Source of the DNA: Escherichia phage BEU50
DNA length: 64,000 nt
Direction: 5' to 3' (one strand)
Sequence record: OM632671.1
Shown here: positions 1 through 63,178 of the stretch, piece after piece
Numbering within the stretch: position 1 is the stretch's first letter
How the letters are laid out: every line of letters starts with the position of its first letter
Position numbers and translations under genes: made by a program
The notes under the pieces: model-generated
What the model was told of the DNA's origin: nothing
Seen by the model: only the letters and a program-made list of their open reading frames with translations
The model's database searches: none

Positions 1-1255
1 CTAGGAATATCTCTTCAAATTTATGTTGCAGCTCACGAATAAATTTACCAAATGACAATTCATCTCGTGTAATAGAAGTACCAGCATCAAACTGTATACC
101 ACCTTGGTCACTTGGAATACGGGTAATAGGAATACGTAAAGCCATATAAAGTGCATTACGGAACCAACGTACATCTTCCATATTTCCAGTATTATCTGCA
201 CCTGGTAATGTGTCAACTTCTGTTACTGCTTTACCATCACGTCGTTGTAACCAATAATCTTCGGTCATCGACATAATATGCTGCTGGTTTTTAATCTTGC
301 CTGTAGTAGCATCATATGCAATACGGTTTTTCATCGTATTCATAACATGTTGCATATGTTCTGCTGCTTTTCTTGAAGGCATATTACCTGTATCAACGTA
401 CCATACACGACGATCGGGAGCACGAGTAATACGATAAATTACGACGGCATCTTCAAGAAGTTTTAATTGGTTCGCTGGCTTAATAGCCCGATGCAAATAA
501 CCGATGATATTTTTACCACAACAATCAACTAAACCAGAATGGGCATAAACAATCGCGGCTTTAGGGATTTTTATTTTTGTGCCAGCTTCATATATGCGAC
601 CATCACAAGCATAAGATTCGTGTGATGTGTCATAAATGAAATATTCTTTATAACCCTTGACTATTTTAACACCGGCTTCAGTGGTTGTAATAACTTCACG
701 GACATATTGAACTTGACGTGGGTCTAAACGACGAAGCTCTTTAATACCTTCTTTAGGGCGTTTAGGGTCAATAATTTTATGGAAGAAAATTCGAGAATCC
801 ACATACCAACGTCTAAAATGATCTGAACCTTTACGTTGGAAAGATAAATGATTTAACACTTCGTTAAATTCATCCAACATCATTGATTTGATATTTGGAC
901 TAAATTTTGTGTTGTCTAAATTTATAGAAACGACTTCTGTATCATCTTCATATACGATAGCATCGGAAACTATTTCAGAGACCGCATTGTCTACTTCATA
1001 GTTCGTCATCAAATTTCGATAAGTATCGATTAATTCACGGGTTGATTTGAGCCCTGGTTCTTGACTACCGAACATTCTCTGAAACATAGCATTATATGTT
1101 TGCTGTGCTTCATTTTCAGATACTTCGTATTCTTTAGCGCCGTCGTCTAATTTTGGCGCGGTGATAGATTCTAAATTTTCTTTTTCTTGGTCTTTGTAAT
1201 CACGTTCGTCCATTTTTGCCCATGGAGCAAACAAACTTAAGATATTAAATTTCAT
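1..1255 (-). CDS. 20: portal vertex protein gp20 (partial; C-terminal part lies beyond window start)
   Basis: Minus-strand frame open from ATG at 1253-1255 to window edge; N-terminus [18 protein letters not shown]... matches recalled T4 gp20; conserved position upstream of 19. Confidence 0.9.
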
Positions 1256-43409: not shown

Positions 43410-43886
43410 ATGATTATCAATGAAAACTCTTGGCACTTTAAAATTTATGCCGCGTTCAATAGTACATGGAATCGTCCGAAAACGTTATGTGCTTATTTTT
43501 GGAAAACGTTTCTCCCGGTATTGGCTGCTTCAATTATTGGATTTGCGATTTTAGCAGCAGTCACAATCATTGGCCAGGAAATTTTAACTAAATTCTTTGT
43601 TTTTAGCAGTCTATGGACATTAGTTCTGGCTTCAATTGGTGTAGGCATTTTAATGGTAGCAGTCATGGCTTTTATTGCTACCGGGTTGGTAATTGGTCCG
43701 TCTTGGTTGTTAGACAAATATAACGACAGAAAATATTATAAAGAAATTGAGCTCATTGCACAAAACCAAGAACGAATTAAAAATGGACTTGAGCCTATTG
43801 AACGTAAGAAATCGATTATCGTTGAATTTTTAAAAGCTCGTAAAGCTAAAGTGTGTCCTACTCTTGAATACAAGCCAGGCAAATGA
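43410..43886 (+). CDS. hypothetical membrane protein
   Basis: Hydrophobic TM segments; 158 aa. Confidence 0.55.
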   Translation: MIINENSWHFKIYAAFNSTWNRPKTLCAYFWKTFLPVLAASIIGFAILAAVTIIGQEILTKFFVFSSLWTLVLASIGVGILMVAVMAFIATGLVIGPSWLLDKYNDRKYYKEIELIAQNQERIKNGLEPIERKKSIIVEFLKARKAKVCPTLEYKPGK

Positions 43887-44665
43887 ATTATATCAAATGT
43901 TATGATGCAATAATTCAACGAGGAAAACTTAGAGGCAGTGATAAGTCTGAGTTGAATTATTATACTGAATCCCATCACATAATCCCTTCATGTATTGGAG
44001 GGAGTGATGACCCGAGTAATAAAGTTTTATTGACTGCCAGGGAACATTTTATCGCTCATTGGTTATTATCAAAAATTCACCCAAACTCTGAAGGATTGAT
44101 TTACGCTTACTGGGCGTTCTATAATTTAGGCGAAGATGCTTTAGGACGAAATCTTAAATTAACCTCAAGAGGCTATAAAGACGTAAGGGAAAAGTTTTCA
44201 GAAATTCACTCTAATAGAATGAAAGATATATGGGAATCACAAGAATATCGTGATAAGCGTTCAGCGACCATGAGCCTCCCTGAGATAAAGGCTAAAATGT
44301 CAGATTCTCAAATAGAGGCACAGAATAGACCTGAAGTTAAAGCAAAAATATCTACTGCTATCAAAGAGGCCTTTAAGAGAGATGATGTTAAAGAACGGCA
44401 TTCAAGAGCTGTTAAAAAGGCCCTAGATAATCCAGAAACTAAAAAGAGACAGTCTGAAGCGTCTAAAGCTAGACAACGAACTGGTAAACACTGGGAAGAT
44501 TATGATATGCTTTACGAACTTTGGATTAAATTGAATCGACCTAAGCGTGGGGCTTTCGGAACCCATATTAGTAAAATGGGTTATCCTAAATCAAATTACC
44601 AACGCTTAATATTACAGTTCATTGAAGATTATGAAAGGAAAGTGAATAATGAAAACGATTGTTAA
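43883..44665 (+). mobile_element. free-standing HNH homing endonuclease (Mob-like) with C-terminal repeated DNA-binding motifs
   Basis: HNH core ESHHIIPSCIGGSDDPSNKVLLTAREHFIAHWLL; C-terminus LYELWIKLNRPK...GYP shared with the HEG at 62324. Confidence 0.8.
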
Positions 44666-52790: not shown

Positions 52791-53262
52791 ATGTTATTAT
52801 CAGGCAAAATATAAAGAAGAAAAACAAAAATTTTATGATGCACAGAATGGTAAGTGTCCTATTTGCCACCGTGAATTAGACCCTGATGTTCAAGGTAACC
52901 ATCTTGACCACGACCACGAATTAAACGGGCCAAAAGCCGGTAGAGTTCGTGGATTACTCTGTAATCTGTGCAACGCAGCAGAAGGTCAAATGAAGCATAA
53001 GTTCAACCGTTCCGGTCTTAAAGGACGTGATGTTGACTACCTCGAATGGCTTGAAGCTCTTCTTGCTTATTTGAAACAAGATTATTCTTATAATAATATC
53101 CATCCTAATTTTGTTCCAGACAAAACTAAAGAGTTCTCAAGACTAGGTAAAGAGGAAATGATGGCTGAGATGCTTCAAAGAGGATTTGAATATAATGAAT
53201 CTGACACCAAAACACAGTTAATAGCTTCATTTAAGAAGCAACTTAGAAAGAGTTTAAAATGA
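52791..53262 (+). pseudogene. 49: endonuclease VII (gene 49) interrupted by a frameshift at codon 7; internal-start ORF 52990-53262 intact
   Basis: ATG 52791 gives MLLSGKI then stop; the +1 frame from 52810 encodes YKEEKQKFYDAQNGKCPICHRE...CNLCNAAEGQMKHKFNRSGLKG..., matching recalled T4 EndoVII; apparent 2-nt loss in aaaatat(at)aaag. Confidence 0.7.
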
Positions 53263-55076
53263 CAATTGAAAAAGAAATTGAAGGATTGATTCATAAAACT
53301 AATAAAGACCTTTTAAACGAGAATGCTAATAAAGATTCTCGTGTTTTTCCAACTCAACGGGACCTTATGGCTGGTATTGTGTCTAAACACATTGCCAAAA
53401 ATATGGTCCCGTCTTTTATTATGAAAGCGCATGAAAGCGGAATTATCCATTTCCACGATATTGATTATTCCCCTGCTCTTCCATTTACTAATTGCTGTTT
53501 AGTAGATTTAAAAGGAATGCTTGAGAACGGGTTTAAGCTCGGTAATGCACAGATTGAAACTCCTAAATCAATCGGTGTTGCTACTGCAATTATGGCACAA
53601 ATTACTGCACAAGTTGCTTCACACCAGTATGGCGGAACGACTTTTGCTAATGTAGATAAAGTACTTTCTCCTTATGTTAAACGCACCTATGCAAAACATA
53701 TTGAGGATGCAGAAAAATGGCAAATCGCTGATGCGTTGAATTATGCTCAATCCAAAACAGAAAAAGATGTCTATGACGCATTCCAAGCTTATGAATATGA
53801 AGTAAACACTCTCTTTAGTTCAAACGGACAAACGCCTTTTGTAACAATTACATTTGGTACGGGAACTGACTGGACTGAACGAATGATTCAGAAAGCAATT
53901 CTGAAAAATCGTATTAAAGGTCTTGGTCGTGATGGGATAACTCCTATTTTCCCTAAGCTTGTTATGTTCATTGAAGAAGGTGTTAATCTTTATAAAGACG
54001 ATCCGAACTATGATATTAAGCAGCTTGCGTTAGAATGTGCAAGCAAAAGAATGTATCCTGACATTATTTCGGTTAAGAATAATAAAGCTATTACCGGTTC
54101 ATCTGTTCCTGTTTCTCCAATGGGTTGCCGTAGTTTCTTGAGTGTATGGAAAGATTCAACCGGTAATGAAATTCTTGATGGTCGCAATAATCTTGGTGTT
54201 GTAACATTGAATCTTCCTCGCATCGCGTTAGATTCTTATATTGGAACGCAATTTAACGAACAGAAATTTGTTGAATTATTCAATGAACGAATGGATTTAT
54301 GTTTTGAAGCTTTGATGTGTAGAATTAGTTCCTTAAAAGGAGTTAAAGCGACTGTTGCTCCTATTCTTTACCAAGAAGGTGCATTCGGGGTTCGTCTTAA
54401 ACCTGATGACGATATAATTGAGTTATTTAAAAATGGTAGAAGTTCAGTGTCCCTAGGATACATTGGTATTCACGAATTGAATATTCTTGTCGGTCGTGAT
54501 ATTGGACAAGAAATTTTAACTAAAATGAATGCTCATCTTAAACAGTGGACTGAAAGAACTGGATTTGCTTTTAGTTTATATTCGACTCCTGCTGAAAACC
54601 TTTGTTATCGCTTCTGTAAACTTGATACAGAAAAATATGGAAGTGTAAAAGATGTTACCGATAAAGGCTGGTACACTAACAGTTTCCACGTTTCAGTAGA
54701 AGAAAATATTACTCCGTTTGAAAAGATTTCTCGTGAAGCGCCATATCATTTCATTGCGACAGGTGGTCACATTTCTTATGTTGAACTTCCTGATATGAAA
54801 AATAACTTAAAGGGTCTTGAGGCCGTATGGGATTATGCTGCACAACATTTAGATTATTTTGGTGTTAATATGCCAGTAGATAAATGTTTTACATGCGGAA
54901 GTACCCATGAAATGACTCCTACTGAAAACGGATTTGTTTGTTCTATTTGTGGAGAAACTGATCCTAAAAAGATGAATACCATAAGAAGAACATGCGGCTA
55001 TCTTGGAACTCCTAGCGTTGTTCCATGGAATTTAGGTAAAATGAAAGAAATGGTAAAACGAGTAAAACATGCATAG
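53259..55076 (+). CDS. nrdD: anaerobic ribonucleoside-triphosphate reductase NrdD (no intron)
   Basis: 605 aa uninterrupted; C-terminal Zn Cys cluster and glycyl radical motif RRTCGYLG. Confidence 0.95.
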   Translation: MTIEKEIEGLIHKTNKDLLNENANKDSRVFPTQRDLMAGIVSKHIAKNMVPSFIMKAHESGIIHFHDIDYSPALPFTNCCLVDLKGMLENGFKLGNAQIETPKSIGVATAIMAQITAQVASHQYGGTTFANVDKVLSPYVKRTYAKHIEDAEKWQIADALNYAQSKTEKDVYDAFQAYEYEVNTLFSSNGQTPFVTITFGTGTDWTERMIQKAILKNRIKGLGRDGITPIFPKLVMFIEEGVNLYKDDPNYDIKQLALECASKRMYPDIISVKNNKAITGSSVPVSPMGCRSFLSVWKDSTGNEILDGRNNLGVVTLNLPRIALDSYIGTQFNEQKFVELFNERMDLCFEALMCRISSLKGVKATVAPILYQEGAFGVRLKPDDDIIELFKNGRSSVSLGYIGIHELNILVGRDIGQEILTKMNAHLKQWTERTGFAFSLYSTPAENLCYRFCKLDTEKYGSVKDVTDKGWYTNSFHVSVEENITPFEKISREAPYHFIATGGHISYVELPDMKNNLKGLEAVWDYAAQHLDYFGVNMPVDKCFTCGSTHEMTPTENGFVCSICGETDPKKMNTIRRTCGYLGTPSVVPWNLGKMKEMVKRVKHA

Positions 55077-55088
55077 GGTTAAACACCA

Positions 55089-55721
55089 ATGAATTATGAC
55101 AGAATCTATTCAAATCTAGTTAATTCTGCTGAACACCCATCTAAGCCCCGTCAAACTAAAGCCGGGTATGAACTTCATCATATAATTCCAAGAAGCATGG
55201 GTGGTCCAGATGATTTAGACAACTTAGTATTTTTAACTTATAAGGCCCACTATACTGCTCACCATTTATTGGCTAAAATATATGGTGGAAAGATGTATGA
55301 TGCATATTGGATAATGAGTAATAGTAAGCATAGAAAAGTTACTTCTTCACAATACGCGTATGCAAAAGCTAAGAAATTTGAAAATCAGCGTGGCGCAAAA
55401 AGAAGCGATAAAACTAAGAAGCTAATGAGCATAGCTAGGTCTAAAGTAACTCTTCCTGATGATTTTGGAAAAAGGATATCTGATGGGCTAACAGGAAGAA
55501 CTTTGTCTACTAGTCATAAAGAGCATATCAAAAATAGTTCTAGAAATCGCTTTAACACCAAAACGGTTATTGGCTATTCACCAGACGGAAATACAATAGA
55601 ACTAACTGGAGCAACTGAAATAAGAAATGCAGGATTTTTTCATTCTGCTGTTTATAAATGTTGCAAAGGAATTCAATCTATTCATAAGGGATATACTTGG
55701 AAATATAAAGATGAATTATGA
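55089..55721 (+). mobile_element. free-standing HNH homing endonuclease between nrdD and nrdG
   Basis: HNH core YELHHIIPRSMGGPDDLDNLVFLTYKAHYTAHHLL; first 7 codons (MNYDRIY) match nrdG; stop overlaps the nrdG start. Confidence 0.8.
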
Positions 55722-56181
55722 TAGAATATACCCGTGCTGCTTTGTTAATGGTCCTGGATGCAGGGTCGTTCTCTTCGTCACTGGATGTTTGCATAAATGC
55801 GAAGGTTGTTATAATCGTAGTACTTGGAATGCTCGTAACGGACAGTTATTCACTATGAATACCGTTAAAGAACTTGCGTCCCATTTAAGCAAATCGTATA
55901 TCCAAGGCCTTACCTTAACCGGTGGTGACCCACTTTATCCACAGAACCGAGAAGAGATTTCAAATTTAGTTTCTTGGGTTAAAGCAAGATTTCCGGAGAA
56001 AGATATCTGGTTGTGGACAGGATATAAGTTTGAAGATATTAAACAGCTAGAAATGCTTAAATATGTTGATGTTATTATTGATGGGAAGTATGAGAAAAAT
56101 CTTCCGACTAAAAAGCTGTGGCGAGGATCAGATAATCAGCGACTTTGGTCAAATACCGATGGGGTGTGGAAACATGATTAA
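55711..56181 (+). CDS. nrdG: anaerobic ribonucleotide reductase activating protein NrdG
   Basis: MNYDRIYPCCFVNGPGCRVVLFVTGCLHKCEGCYN (radical-SAM CxxxCxxC); 156 aa. Confidence 0.93.
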   Translation: MNYDRIYPCCFVNGPGCRVVLFVTGCLHKCEGCYNRSTWNARNGQLFTMNTVKELASHLSKSYIQGLTLTGGDPLYPQNREEISNLVSWVKARFPEKDIWLWTGYKFEDIKQLEMLKYVDVIIDGKYEKNLPTKKLWRGSDNQRLWSNTDGVWKHD

Positions 56182-62323: not shown

Positions 62324-63178
62324 GTGAAGAATTTTAAACTTGATATTAATGACGAATTTTTAATAAAGGAATTAGTTGAAAAATTAGTGTTGAGCGAAGA
62401 AGACGCCAAGTCTTACATTAATTTTATTTCTATGAATTCAACTGTTAAAACTCCGGGTAAAACGGAAGCACATCACGTGCTTCCTAAATCAATATTTCCT
62501 GAATATTTAAAATCTACATGGAATTTAGTTAATTTAAGTCATTTTAATCATTTCAAAGCACATTTCTTATTAGCAAAAGGTAAAAATGGAAAAATGCTAA
62601 ATGCTTTAAATAGAATGATGTCAGGAAAAACATATAAAAATTTATCTTTAGCCGAAGTTGATTTAATAGCTGCTGAATATAGTTTTATAAGACAAGATGT
62701 AAGTGACACAATATCAAAAAGGCTTCAACAATATTATTCAAATCCGCAAAATAGAAATGCTGCTAGAGAAAGGGCATTAAAATATTTTTCAGTAGCAAAA
62801 AATAGGAAAGATAACAAAGAAAGATTAAATAATTTTAAAACAAAACAAAAAATTTCAATGGCTTCAAGGGAATGGTTTAATAACGAAGAAAATAAAATTA
62901 AACACCAAAAGGCTGTTCGTGCTGCTTTATCAAAACCTGAATATAAAATAGCTATATCAAATTCAGTAGCTGCTAGTTGGAAAAATCCGGAGATTAGAAA
63001 AGCTCATATAGCATCTCGACGAAAAGGCTATCATTGGGATAATAAAGATAAATTGTATGAATTGTGGATATCATATAATCGTCCTAAACATGTGATGTTT
63101 AGGAAAATGTTAGTTAAGAATGGATATCCAATAGAGGCTTCATTACAGGCTTTAGTTAAAGAATTTTCTTCATTGTGA
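62324..63178 (+). mobile_element. free-standing HNH homing endonuclease (Mob-like) between genes 47 and 46
   Basis: HNH core TEAHHVLPKSIF...NLVNLSHFNHFKAHFLL; C-terminus paralogous to the HEG at 43883; very AT-rich; GTG start after SD aaagga. Confidence 0.75.

Follow-up and report, generated by a model that had tools for sequence, protein, structure and literature searches.

The mobC and nrdG genes of a T4-like Tequatrovirus lie next to each other and begin with the same seven amino acids. The shared codons appear to reflect family conservation on both sides and not a recent copy of nrdG. Two independently conserved N-termini probably meet at this locus, with mobC set in register at the nrdG start, and the resulting 21-nt repeat then acted as the left limit of homology during transfer. 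The gene is already known and its shared codons are of ordinary origin; the recombination anatomy is the part that goes beyond the ordinary.

The sequence compared was a 64-kb window, the whole stretch of DNA analysed, in which nrdD, an HNH ORF and nrdG follow one another on the + strand (Table 1). The DNA of the locus is ~99% identical to that of Shigella phage SHFML-11 and 96% identical to that of T4. The initial annotation, made from the sequence alone, had placed an HNH homing endonuclease directly upstream of nrdG, and the Pfam matches to HNH (26.8 bits against a cutoff of 21.4) and Fer4_12 bear this out. Its remark that nrdD has no intron, unlike T4, also holds: the ORF spans the full NRDD profile, whereas T4 nrdD is annotated as joined from two pieces around the I-TevII intron. 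The overlap that it noted between the endonuclease stop and the nrdG start measures 11 nt, the TGA at 55719-55721 lying inside nrdG.

Table 1. Features of the nrdD-mobC-nrdG locus and related genes. Positions are those of the window unless another record is named.
Feature	Positions	Strand	Description
nrdD, anaerobic ribonucleotide reductase large subunit	53259-55076	+	single uninterrupted 605-aa ORF; Pfam NRDD 9.7e-172
Relic of ancestral nrdD C-terminal codons	55069-55092	+	ATGCATAGGGTTAAACACCAATGA, MHRVKHQ and stop; out of frame with nrdD in the window, in-frame nrdD end in T4, HP3, G2540-3 and HEG-less phages
mobC, free-standing HNH homing endonuclease gene	55089-55721	+	210 aa; Pfam HNH; identified by identity to T4 mobC
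Left copy of the shared 21 nt	55089-55109	+	mobC codons 1-7, MNYDRIY, ATGAATTATGACAGAATCTAT
nrdG, radical-SAM activase of NrdD	55711-56181	+	156 aa; Pfam Fer4_12 2e-50
Right copy of the shared 21 nt	55711-55731	+	nrdG codons 1-7, MNYDRIY, ATGAATTATGATAGAATATAC
nrdG tract, window	nrdG nt 1-60		'PCCF' type seen beside segH/HEG2
nrdG tract, window	nrdG nt ~60-110		mobC-linked type (T4 and window taken together: nt 1-110 mobC-linked)
nrdG tract, T4 and window	nrdG nt 111-330 (55821-56040)		near-identical to Jiaodavirus nrdG
nrdG tract, T4 and window	nrdG nt 331-471		Tequatrovirus type
Recoded patch in nrdG, nt 90-114	55800-55824	+	at the radical-SAM CxxxCxxC-Y-N-[K/R]-S site
MobD-like Mob-type HNH gene	43883-44665		starts MNYIKCY; ATG overlaps upstream stop as ATGA
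MobB-like Mob-type HNH gene	62324-63178		GTG start; without MNY start
HEG2 copy, Yersinia phage PST	L130 901-1740
HEG2 copy	L131 901-1740
HEG2 copy, SmallBear_ER8	L129 709-1545	-

The 210-aa ORF is 99% identical in amino acids and 99.5% in DNA to T4 mobC, and 99% identical in amino acids to RB55 MobC. All residues that are invariant in a 40-sequence family alignment (H30, H31, G39, N45, H54, H58) are present. By this identity and by its place between nrdD and nrdG, we regard the ORF as the orthologue of the known phage T4 gene mobC. T4 MobC (formerly ORF 55.10), a putative free-standing HNH homing endonuclease, has the same neighbours, orientation and 11-nt nrdG overlap, and the two proteins are separated by two amino acid changes, S40P and N142S. 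Apart from the nrdD intron, the loci differ in that the window nrdD stops 12 nt short of mobC whereas the T4 nrdD stop overlaps it, and in that nt 18-51 of the window nrdG are of a variant type, 'PCCF'. The activity of MobC was given as "not determined" and its target as "unknown" in a 2010 review (Table 1 of PMC2988022), and the consulted papers that mention mobC contain no discussion of the MobC N-terminus. An AlphaFold model of MobC (pLDDT 93) shows residues 3-15 as an N-terminal helix (pLDDT ~97). Its best PDB fold match is I-HmuI (E=2e-3, TM 0.26-0.31), and the I-HmuI_NUMOD-like profile gives a weak match below cutoff (E=0.043). The C-terminal GYTWKY motif and the fold model are compatible with an I-HmuI-type layout, which would comprise a nuclease, a NUMOD-type linker and a DNA-binding domain.

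Among the 835 phage records matching the locus, 31 carry mobC. The gene is 98.6-100% identical in DNA among four Tequatrovirus and three Klebsiella Jiaodavirus genomes, and about one third of the nucleotides in the 3' part of nrdG (~47 of 141) differ between the two genera. Being sporadic among close relatives and near-identical across divergent genomes, mobC behaves as a mobile element.

Direct comparison of the two starts confirmed the observation that had drawn attention to the locus, namely that both genes begin MNYDRIY, 622 nt apart, with 18 of 21 nucleotides identical. The three mismatches are all synonymous and fall at third codon positions. With up to three mismatches allowed, the 21-mer occurs at just these two sites in the whole window, where 0.02 would be expected by chance. 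Two independent stretches encoding MNYDRIY at the codon usage of this phage are expected to agree at 17.85 of 21 positions. The match is far above that of random sequence, yet not above the codon-usage expectation. Among ORFs of at least 50 aa in the window, nrdG is the only one starting MNY that does not encode an endonuclease.

Both N-termini are conserved in their own families. An exhaustive HMMER search for MobC homologues gave 12,897 representatives; the 156 proteins examined are the best 150 of these plus those of a separate homologue search, which found seven. Most of the best 150 align from residue 1. The start M[ND]Y..[IVH]Y is found in 109 of the 156, most commonly as MNYQRIY (13), MNYQKIY (7), MNYKKIY (6) and MNYERIY (6), and M1, Y3 and Y7 are invariant in the 40-sequence alignment, in which the family helix runs on in register through residues 8-15 of MobC. 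At unrelated loci, Mob-type HNH endonucleases can be described as starting MNY[QKE][KR]IY, the beginning of a conserved helix. Asp is rare at position 4 (2/109), and the closest relatives of MobC, in KP27 and P0008, carry QK or HK at positions 4-5, where MobC carries DR. On the other side, bacterial NrdG proteins (Chromobacterium, Chitinibacter, Deefgea) begin MNYDRYY. A start of the form MNYDR[I/Y/F]Y, found in phages and bacteria, is an old feature of NrdG itself.

Nucleotide comparison with family genes elsewhere gave the same picture. A locus search of IMG/VR with the single MobC protein returned no mobC, and an alignment-based search was used for the family loci. We assembled 71 unlinked family genes from viral contigs whose flanks lack nrdG and nrdD. 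Their first 21 nt match the window nrdG start at 15.3 positions on average, and 11 of the 71 reach at least 18. One family gene (P0074), located between the baseplate genes gp5 and gp6, itself begins MNYDRIY (ATGAATTACGATAGGATATAT) and matches the nrdG start at 18 of 21 nt. The initial annotation had named this very finding, the same N-terminal nucleotides in homologues at other loci, as the one that would point to family conservation rather than local duplication. The first codons of mobC are not host sequence that its relatives elsewhere lack, since relatives at other loci share the N-terminus. None of 80 other family loci adjoins nrdG. Given two conserved N-termini and the codon-usage expectation, the shared codons would therefore not represent a fresh duplication. 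The rare Asp4 was considered as proof of conversion from nrdG and set aside, being weakened by the MNYDRIY of the baseplate-locus gene.

The insertion point was located by alignment with HEG-less relatives, the check proposed initially, and it coincides with the position of the nrdG ATG. In HEG-less phages (SQ17 and nine IMG/VR T-even contigs), nrdD ends ATG CAT AGG GTT AAA CAC CAA TGA and its stop overlaps the nrdG ATG (...CACCAATGAATTATGATAGA). T4, HP3 and G2540-3 have an identical junction, with the mobC ATG standing where the nrdG ATG stands in HEG-less relatives (ATGA overlap). A new nrdG start lies where mobC ends; in the mobC frame, nt 2-11 of this nrdG encode the last MobC residues and the stop (..KDEL and stop). 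Copies of the 21-nt nrdG start thus stand as a direct repeat on either side of the mobC body. Of the two origins first envisaged, the N-terminus shared by the family is supported by the unlinked loci; the insertion at the 5' end of nrdG stands as to position, and the duplicated initiation region is not demonstrable for mobC. The KP27-type MobC homologue also lies upstream of nrdG and keeps a 35-nt leader of its own with a native start, MNYQKIY, which shows that the nrdG start need not be replaced in register.

The window junction has a further layer. The relic TGA overlaps the mobC ATG as ATGA, and the apparent 12-nt 'intergenic' segment at 55077-55088 is part of the relic. The last ~80 nt of the window nrdD (54990-55076) form a variant tail, ...GTPSVVPWNLGKMKEMVKRVKHA followed by the stop, that is identical to that of PM123 and unlike those of T4 and HEG-less phages; this tail is otherwise found in phages with a segH-type GIY-YIG gene. 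The window is thus a patchwork of segH-type nrdD tail, out-of-frame relic, T4-type mobC and 'PCCF' nrdG nt 18-51. The tail and relic together suggest that segH-type and mobC-type genomes once exchanged sequence, crossing over at CATGCATAGG.

The Klebsiella Jiaodaviruses provide natural recombinants at the left junction. In Jiaodaviruses an additional ORF separates nrdD from nrdG, and the sequence upstream of the nrdG ATG is without similarity to T4. In the HEG-less members (K65, L006, L031), nrdG starts ATGAATTTCGACAGAATCTAC, encoding MNFDRIY. In the mobC+ members (Shark_ER15, Boboto, Wolf_ER13), the 45 nt upstream and mobC nt 1-20 are of the resident nrdG type (ATGAATTTCGACAGAATCTA), so that MobC begins MNF, and the gene is of T4 type from nt 21 onward; the nrdG that follows starts with the T4-type ATGAATTATGATAGAAT. 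The change from resident codons to T4-type mobC therefore places the left crossover within nt 10-20 of the shared segment. The Phe in place of the family-invariant Tyr3 is a direct footprint of nrdG sequence inside Jiaodavirus mobC. This junction is documented by three genomes that possibly record one event. The identity of mobC nt 10-20 (GACAGAATCTA) with Jiaodavirus nrdG was also tried as proof of an nrdG origin, and it was rejected, as it involves two informative synonymous sites with a chance probability of ~1 in 6.

Downstream of mobC, nrdG is itself a mosaic (Table 1). In nt 111-330, T4 and the window differ from K65 at 0-1 positions per 30 nt, and nt 181-300 are 100% identical to it, whereas HEG-less Tequatroviruses differ at up to 19 per 30 nt (up to 60% per bin). 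This Jiaodavirus-like tract suggests a passage of the mobC region through a Jiaodavirus-like genome before it reached the T4 lineage. In Boboto and Shark the mosaic tracts extend to nt ~113-136, and in T4 and the window to ~330; the T4-type tract of Boboto stops between nt 113 and 136.

Within this mosaic, one patch is linked to mobC. Its core, CGTAG at 55816-55820, results from AAT CGT AGT (N R S) replacing AAT AAA TCN (N K S) at codons 35-37, immediately behind the radical-SAM CxxxCxxC, which amounts to five changes in six nt with a single replacement, K to R. All mobC+ genomes examined have the CGTAG form, and unexposed genomes have AAT AAA TCN. It also occurs as an isolated short patch (nt 90-114) in the HEG-less Tequatroviruses Pu-Krd-SF3 and ERS-1, and in the HEG-less Jiaodavirus Klebsiella phage 5N (nt 90-110, with one more difference at nt 136). 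In Slopekvirus KP27, beside the 44%-identical MobC homologue, the same nrdG codons are recoded (AAT CGC AGT vs AAC AAA TCG) and nrdG is otherwise identical to that of HEG-less relatives. We infer that this motif, ~100 nt from the insertion site, is recognised by enzymes of the MobC clade, the recoded patch being a candidate MobC recognition or cleavage site in resistant form. The mobC+ genomes combine co-converted flanking markers with a candidate resistant allele, the patch being the presumptive site of cleavage. Signs that mobC had been excised precisely through recombination of the 21-nt repeats were sought; the HEG-less CGTAG carriers Pu-Krd-SF3 and 5N have short patches only, and no deletion scars.

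Two other variants in nrdG were observed. A HEG-less Slopekvirus-like IMG/VR contig (L025, 2001-2492) has CGT AGT at nrdG codons 36-37 and may carry a resistant allele without the endonuclease. At codons 8-11, PCCF (CCG TGC TGC TTT; nt 18-51, window 55728-55761) replaces the PCDF of T4. The PCCF variant is common to PM123 (segH-type), PST-type genomes, mobC+ Shark_ER15 and HEG-less ERS-1, and may be a further patch, either conferring resistance to another endonuclease or co-converted with it.

Comparison of the records marks the nrdD|nrdG junction as a hot spot, with no fewer than three different endonuclease genes as its occupants. HEG2, a MobB-like HNH gene of 278-279 aa, occupies the site in 32 records, among them EcMI02 and UFV-AREG1 as well as those in Table 1, and is annotated 'mobC' in PST though weakly similar to T4 MobC; it is ~35% identical to the MobB-like ORF of the window. 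Like mobC, it uses nrdG nt 2-11 for its C-terminus, which ends within the next nrdG start (...WKYINEL and stop, vs WKYKDEL and stop in MobC), and at its N-terminus it follows whichever nrdG is resident, in Tequatrovirus as in Jiaodavirus. In PST, EcMI02 and SmallBear_ER8, HEG2 codons 1-13 (40 nt) equal the 5' end of the resident nrdG (MNYDRFYPCDFVN in Tequatrovirus, MNFDRIYPSDFVN in Jiaodavirus) and precede a body that begins DKLS.... Unlike the start of mobC, these nrdG-derived codons are absent from paralogues elsewhere, which align from residue 22 only. The Tequatrovirus carriers of HEG2 differ from those of mobC in keeping the AAATC form of nrdG. HEG2 thus carries a genuine duplication of the nrdG initiation region, the first of the two origins envisaged initially, at the site of mobC but in another gene.

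The third gene encodes a GIY-YIG protein, of a fold unrelated to MobC, and is found at the site in ~71 phage records. The PM123 gene is segH-like. The segH-like gene is also grafted onto a neighbour's codons, and it borrows the nrdD end, not the nrdG start: its start is the ATGCATAGG (MHR) in the ancestral tail of nrdD, for which it carries in a substitute (...MVKRVKHA and stop). The GIY-YIG homing endonuclease SegH is reported to take the place of mobC in certain phages of the T4 type (Sandegren, Nord & Sjoberg 2005, cited in PMC2988022). In the segH-carrying phage PM123 (L004, 2497-2968), nrdG is annotated as two ORFs, with a frameshift or stop after codon ~95 that may reflect either an error in sequencing or damage to the gene. 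The nrdD|nrdG junctions may have been described already by Sandegren and colleagues in 2005.

T4 MobE, with the intronless homing model for free-standing endonucleases (Wilson & Edgell 2009; PMC2988022), offers a further close comparison. MobE is of the HNH family with an MNY..IY type of start that overlaps the upstream stop, and it adjoins the ribonucleotide reductase gene carrying its target, with co-conversion of flanking sequence. Its activity and its target in nrdB have been demonstrated, whereas for MobC both are inferred.

HEG2 raises the question of whether mobC arose in the same way, its body inserted after nrdG codon 7, so that its first seven codons are physically those of nrdG and a second nrdG start was made downstream. 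Family resemblance would then have made the fusion functional without being the source of the codons. Such a local duplication would match the 13 resident codons of HEG2 in each genus, and it would account for Jiaodavirus mobC, whose codons 1-7 are those of the resident nrdG including Phe3, as well as for the rare Asp4 and for the absence of DR from the closest relatives of MobC. We nevertheless consider it unlikely, as MNYDRIY is present in the baseplate-locus gene, MNYQRIY and MNYERIY are among the commonest family starts, residues 8-15 continue the family helix, and with three synonymous differences the two starts are exactly as similar as independent sequences should be; in the first 21 nt of T4-type mobC, no nucleotide separates an nrdG from a family origin. 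At the opposite extreme, mobC might stand beside nrdG only for a target in that gene, the matching starts being irrelevant to insertion, transfer and expression. The isolation of this locus among the 80 others, the leader and start retained by the KP27-type homologue and a nucleotide identity no higher than predicted from codon usage all agree with pure coincidence. It seems very improbable all the same, given that nrdG is the sole non-endonuclease MNY ORF of the window, that the junction is exactly in register with the nrdD stop/nrdG start overlap, and that in Jiaodavirus the homology to the left of mobC is confined to the 21-nt segment, with the junction within it.

The meeting of two conserved N-termini followed by homologous transfer would proceed as follows. 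Chance similarity of the starts would have favoured or permitted in-register insertion, the mobC ATG taking the place of the nrdG ATG and a second nrdG start supplying the last mobC codons and stop. That the coincidence of starts promoted insertion is plausible, on the basis of a single locus; the KP27-type homologue does without it, and no other family locus adjoins nrdG. MobC would then cut at the radical-SAM motif of nrdG, ~100 nt further downstream, the site of the recoded and presumably resistant patch in mobC-linked genomes. Repair from a mobC+ genome would copy mobC together with a variable stretch of nrdG. In transfer between Tequatrovirus and Jiaodavirus, with no shared sequence upstream, the crossover fell inside the 21-nt repeat, and the first codons of mobC are therefore always those of the resident nrdG.

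More tentatively, the 21-nt match may be a portable minimal left homology arm and a borrowed translation start, with which cassettes at the hot spot (mobC, and the PST-type HNH gene with its 40 nt) could cross between genera unlike each other upstream of nrdG; the right nrdG copy would give the stop and a cleavage-resistant radical-SAM motif, and the MobC target would be nrdG codons 30-38. If so, each of these elements would be a cassette that lacks start and stop codons proper to it and resides within a gene start that has been duplicated.

MobC is an orphan among T4 homing endonucleases, and the comparative anatomy makes its activity and target testable. A 25-nt stretch in the radical-SAM motif of nrdG now stands as a specific candidate target, of which natural alleles, presumably sensitive and resistant, are available. 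The natural recombinants show that ~20 nt of shared coding sequence sufficed to fix the left junction when mobC passed between genera, and the comparison shows that hot-spot endonuclease genes can draw start and stop codons from copies of a neighbour's 5' end. For annotation, adjacent genes with identical first codons need not mean duplication.

Promoters for the downstream gene have been described as embedded in mobC (PMC2988022). A sigma-70 promoter scan found nothing above shuffled expectation. A terminator-like hairpin with a T-run lies inside the 3' end of mobC (55629-55648). It is followed at 55653-55660, ~50 nt upstream of nrdG, by TATAAATG, which agrees at 7 of 8 positions with the T4 late-promoter consensus.
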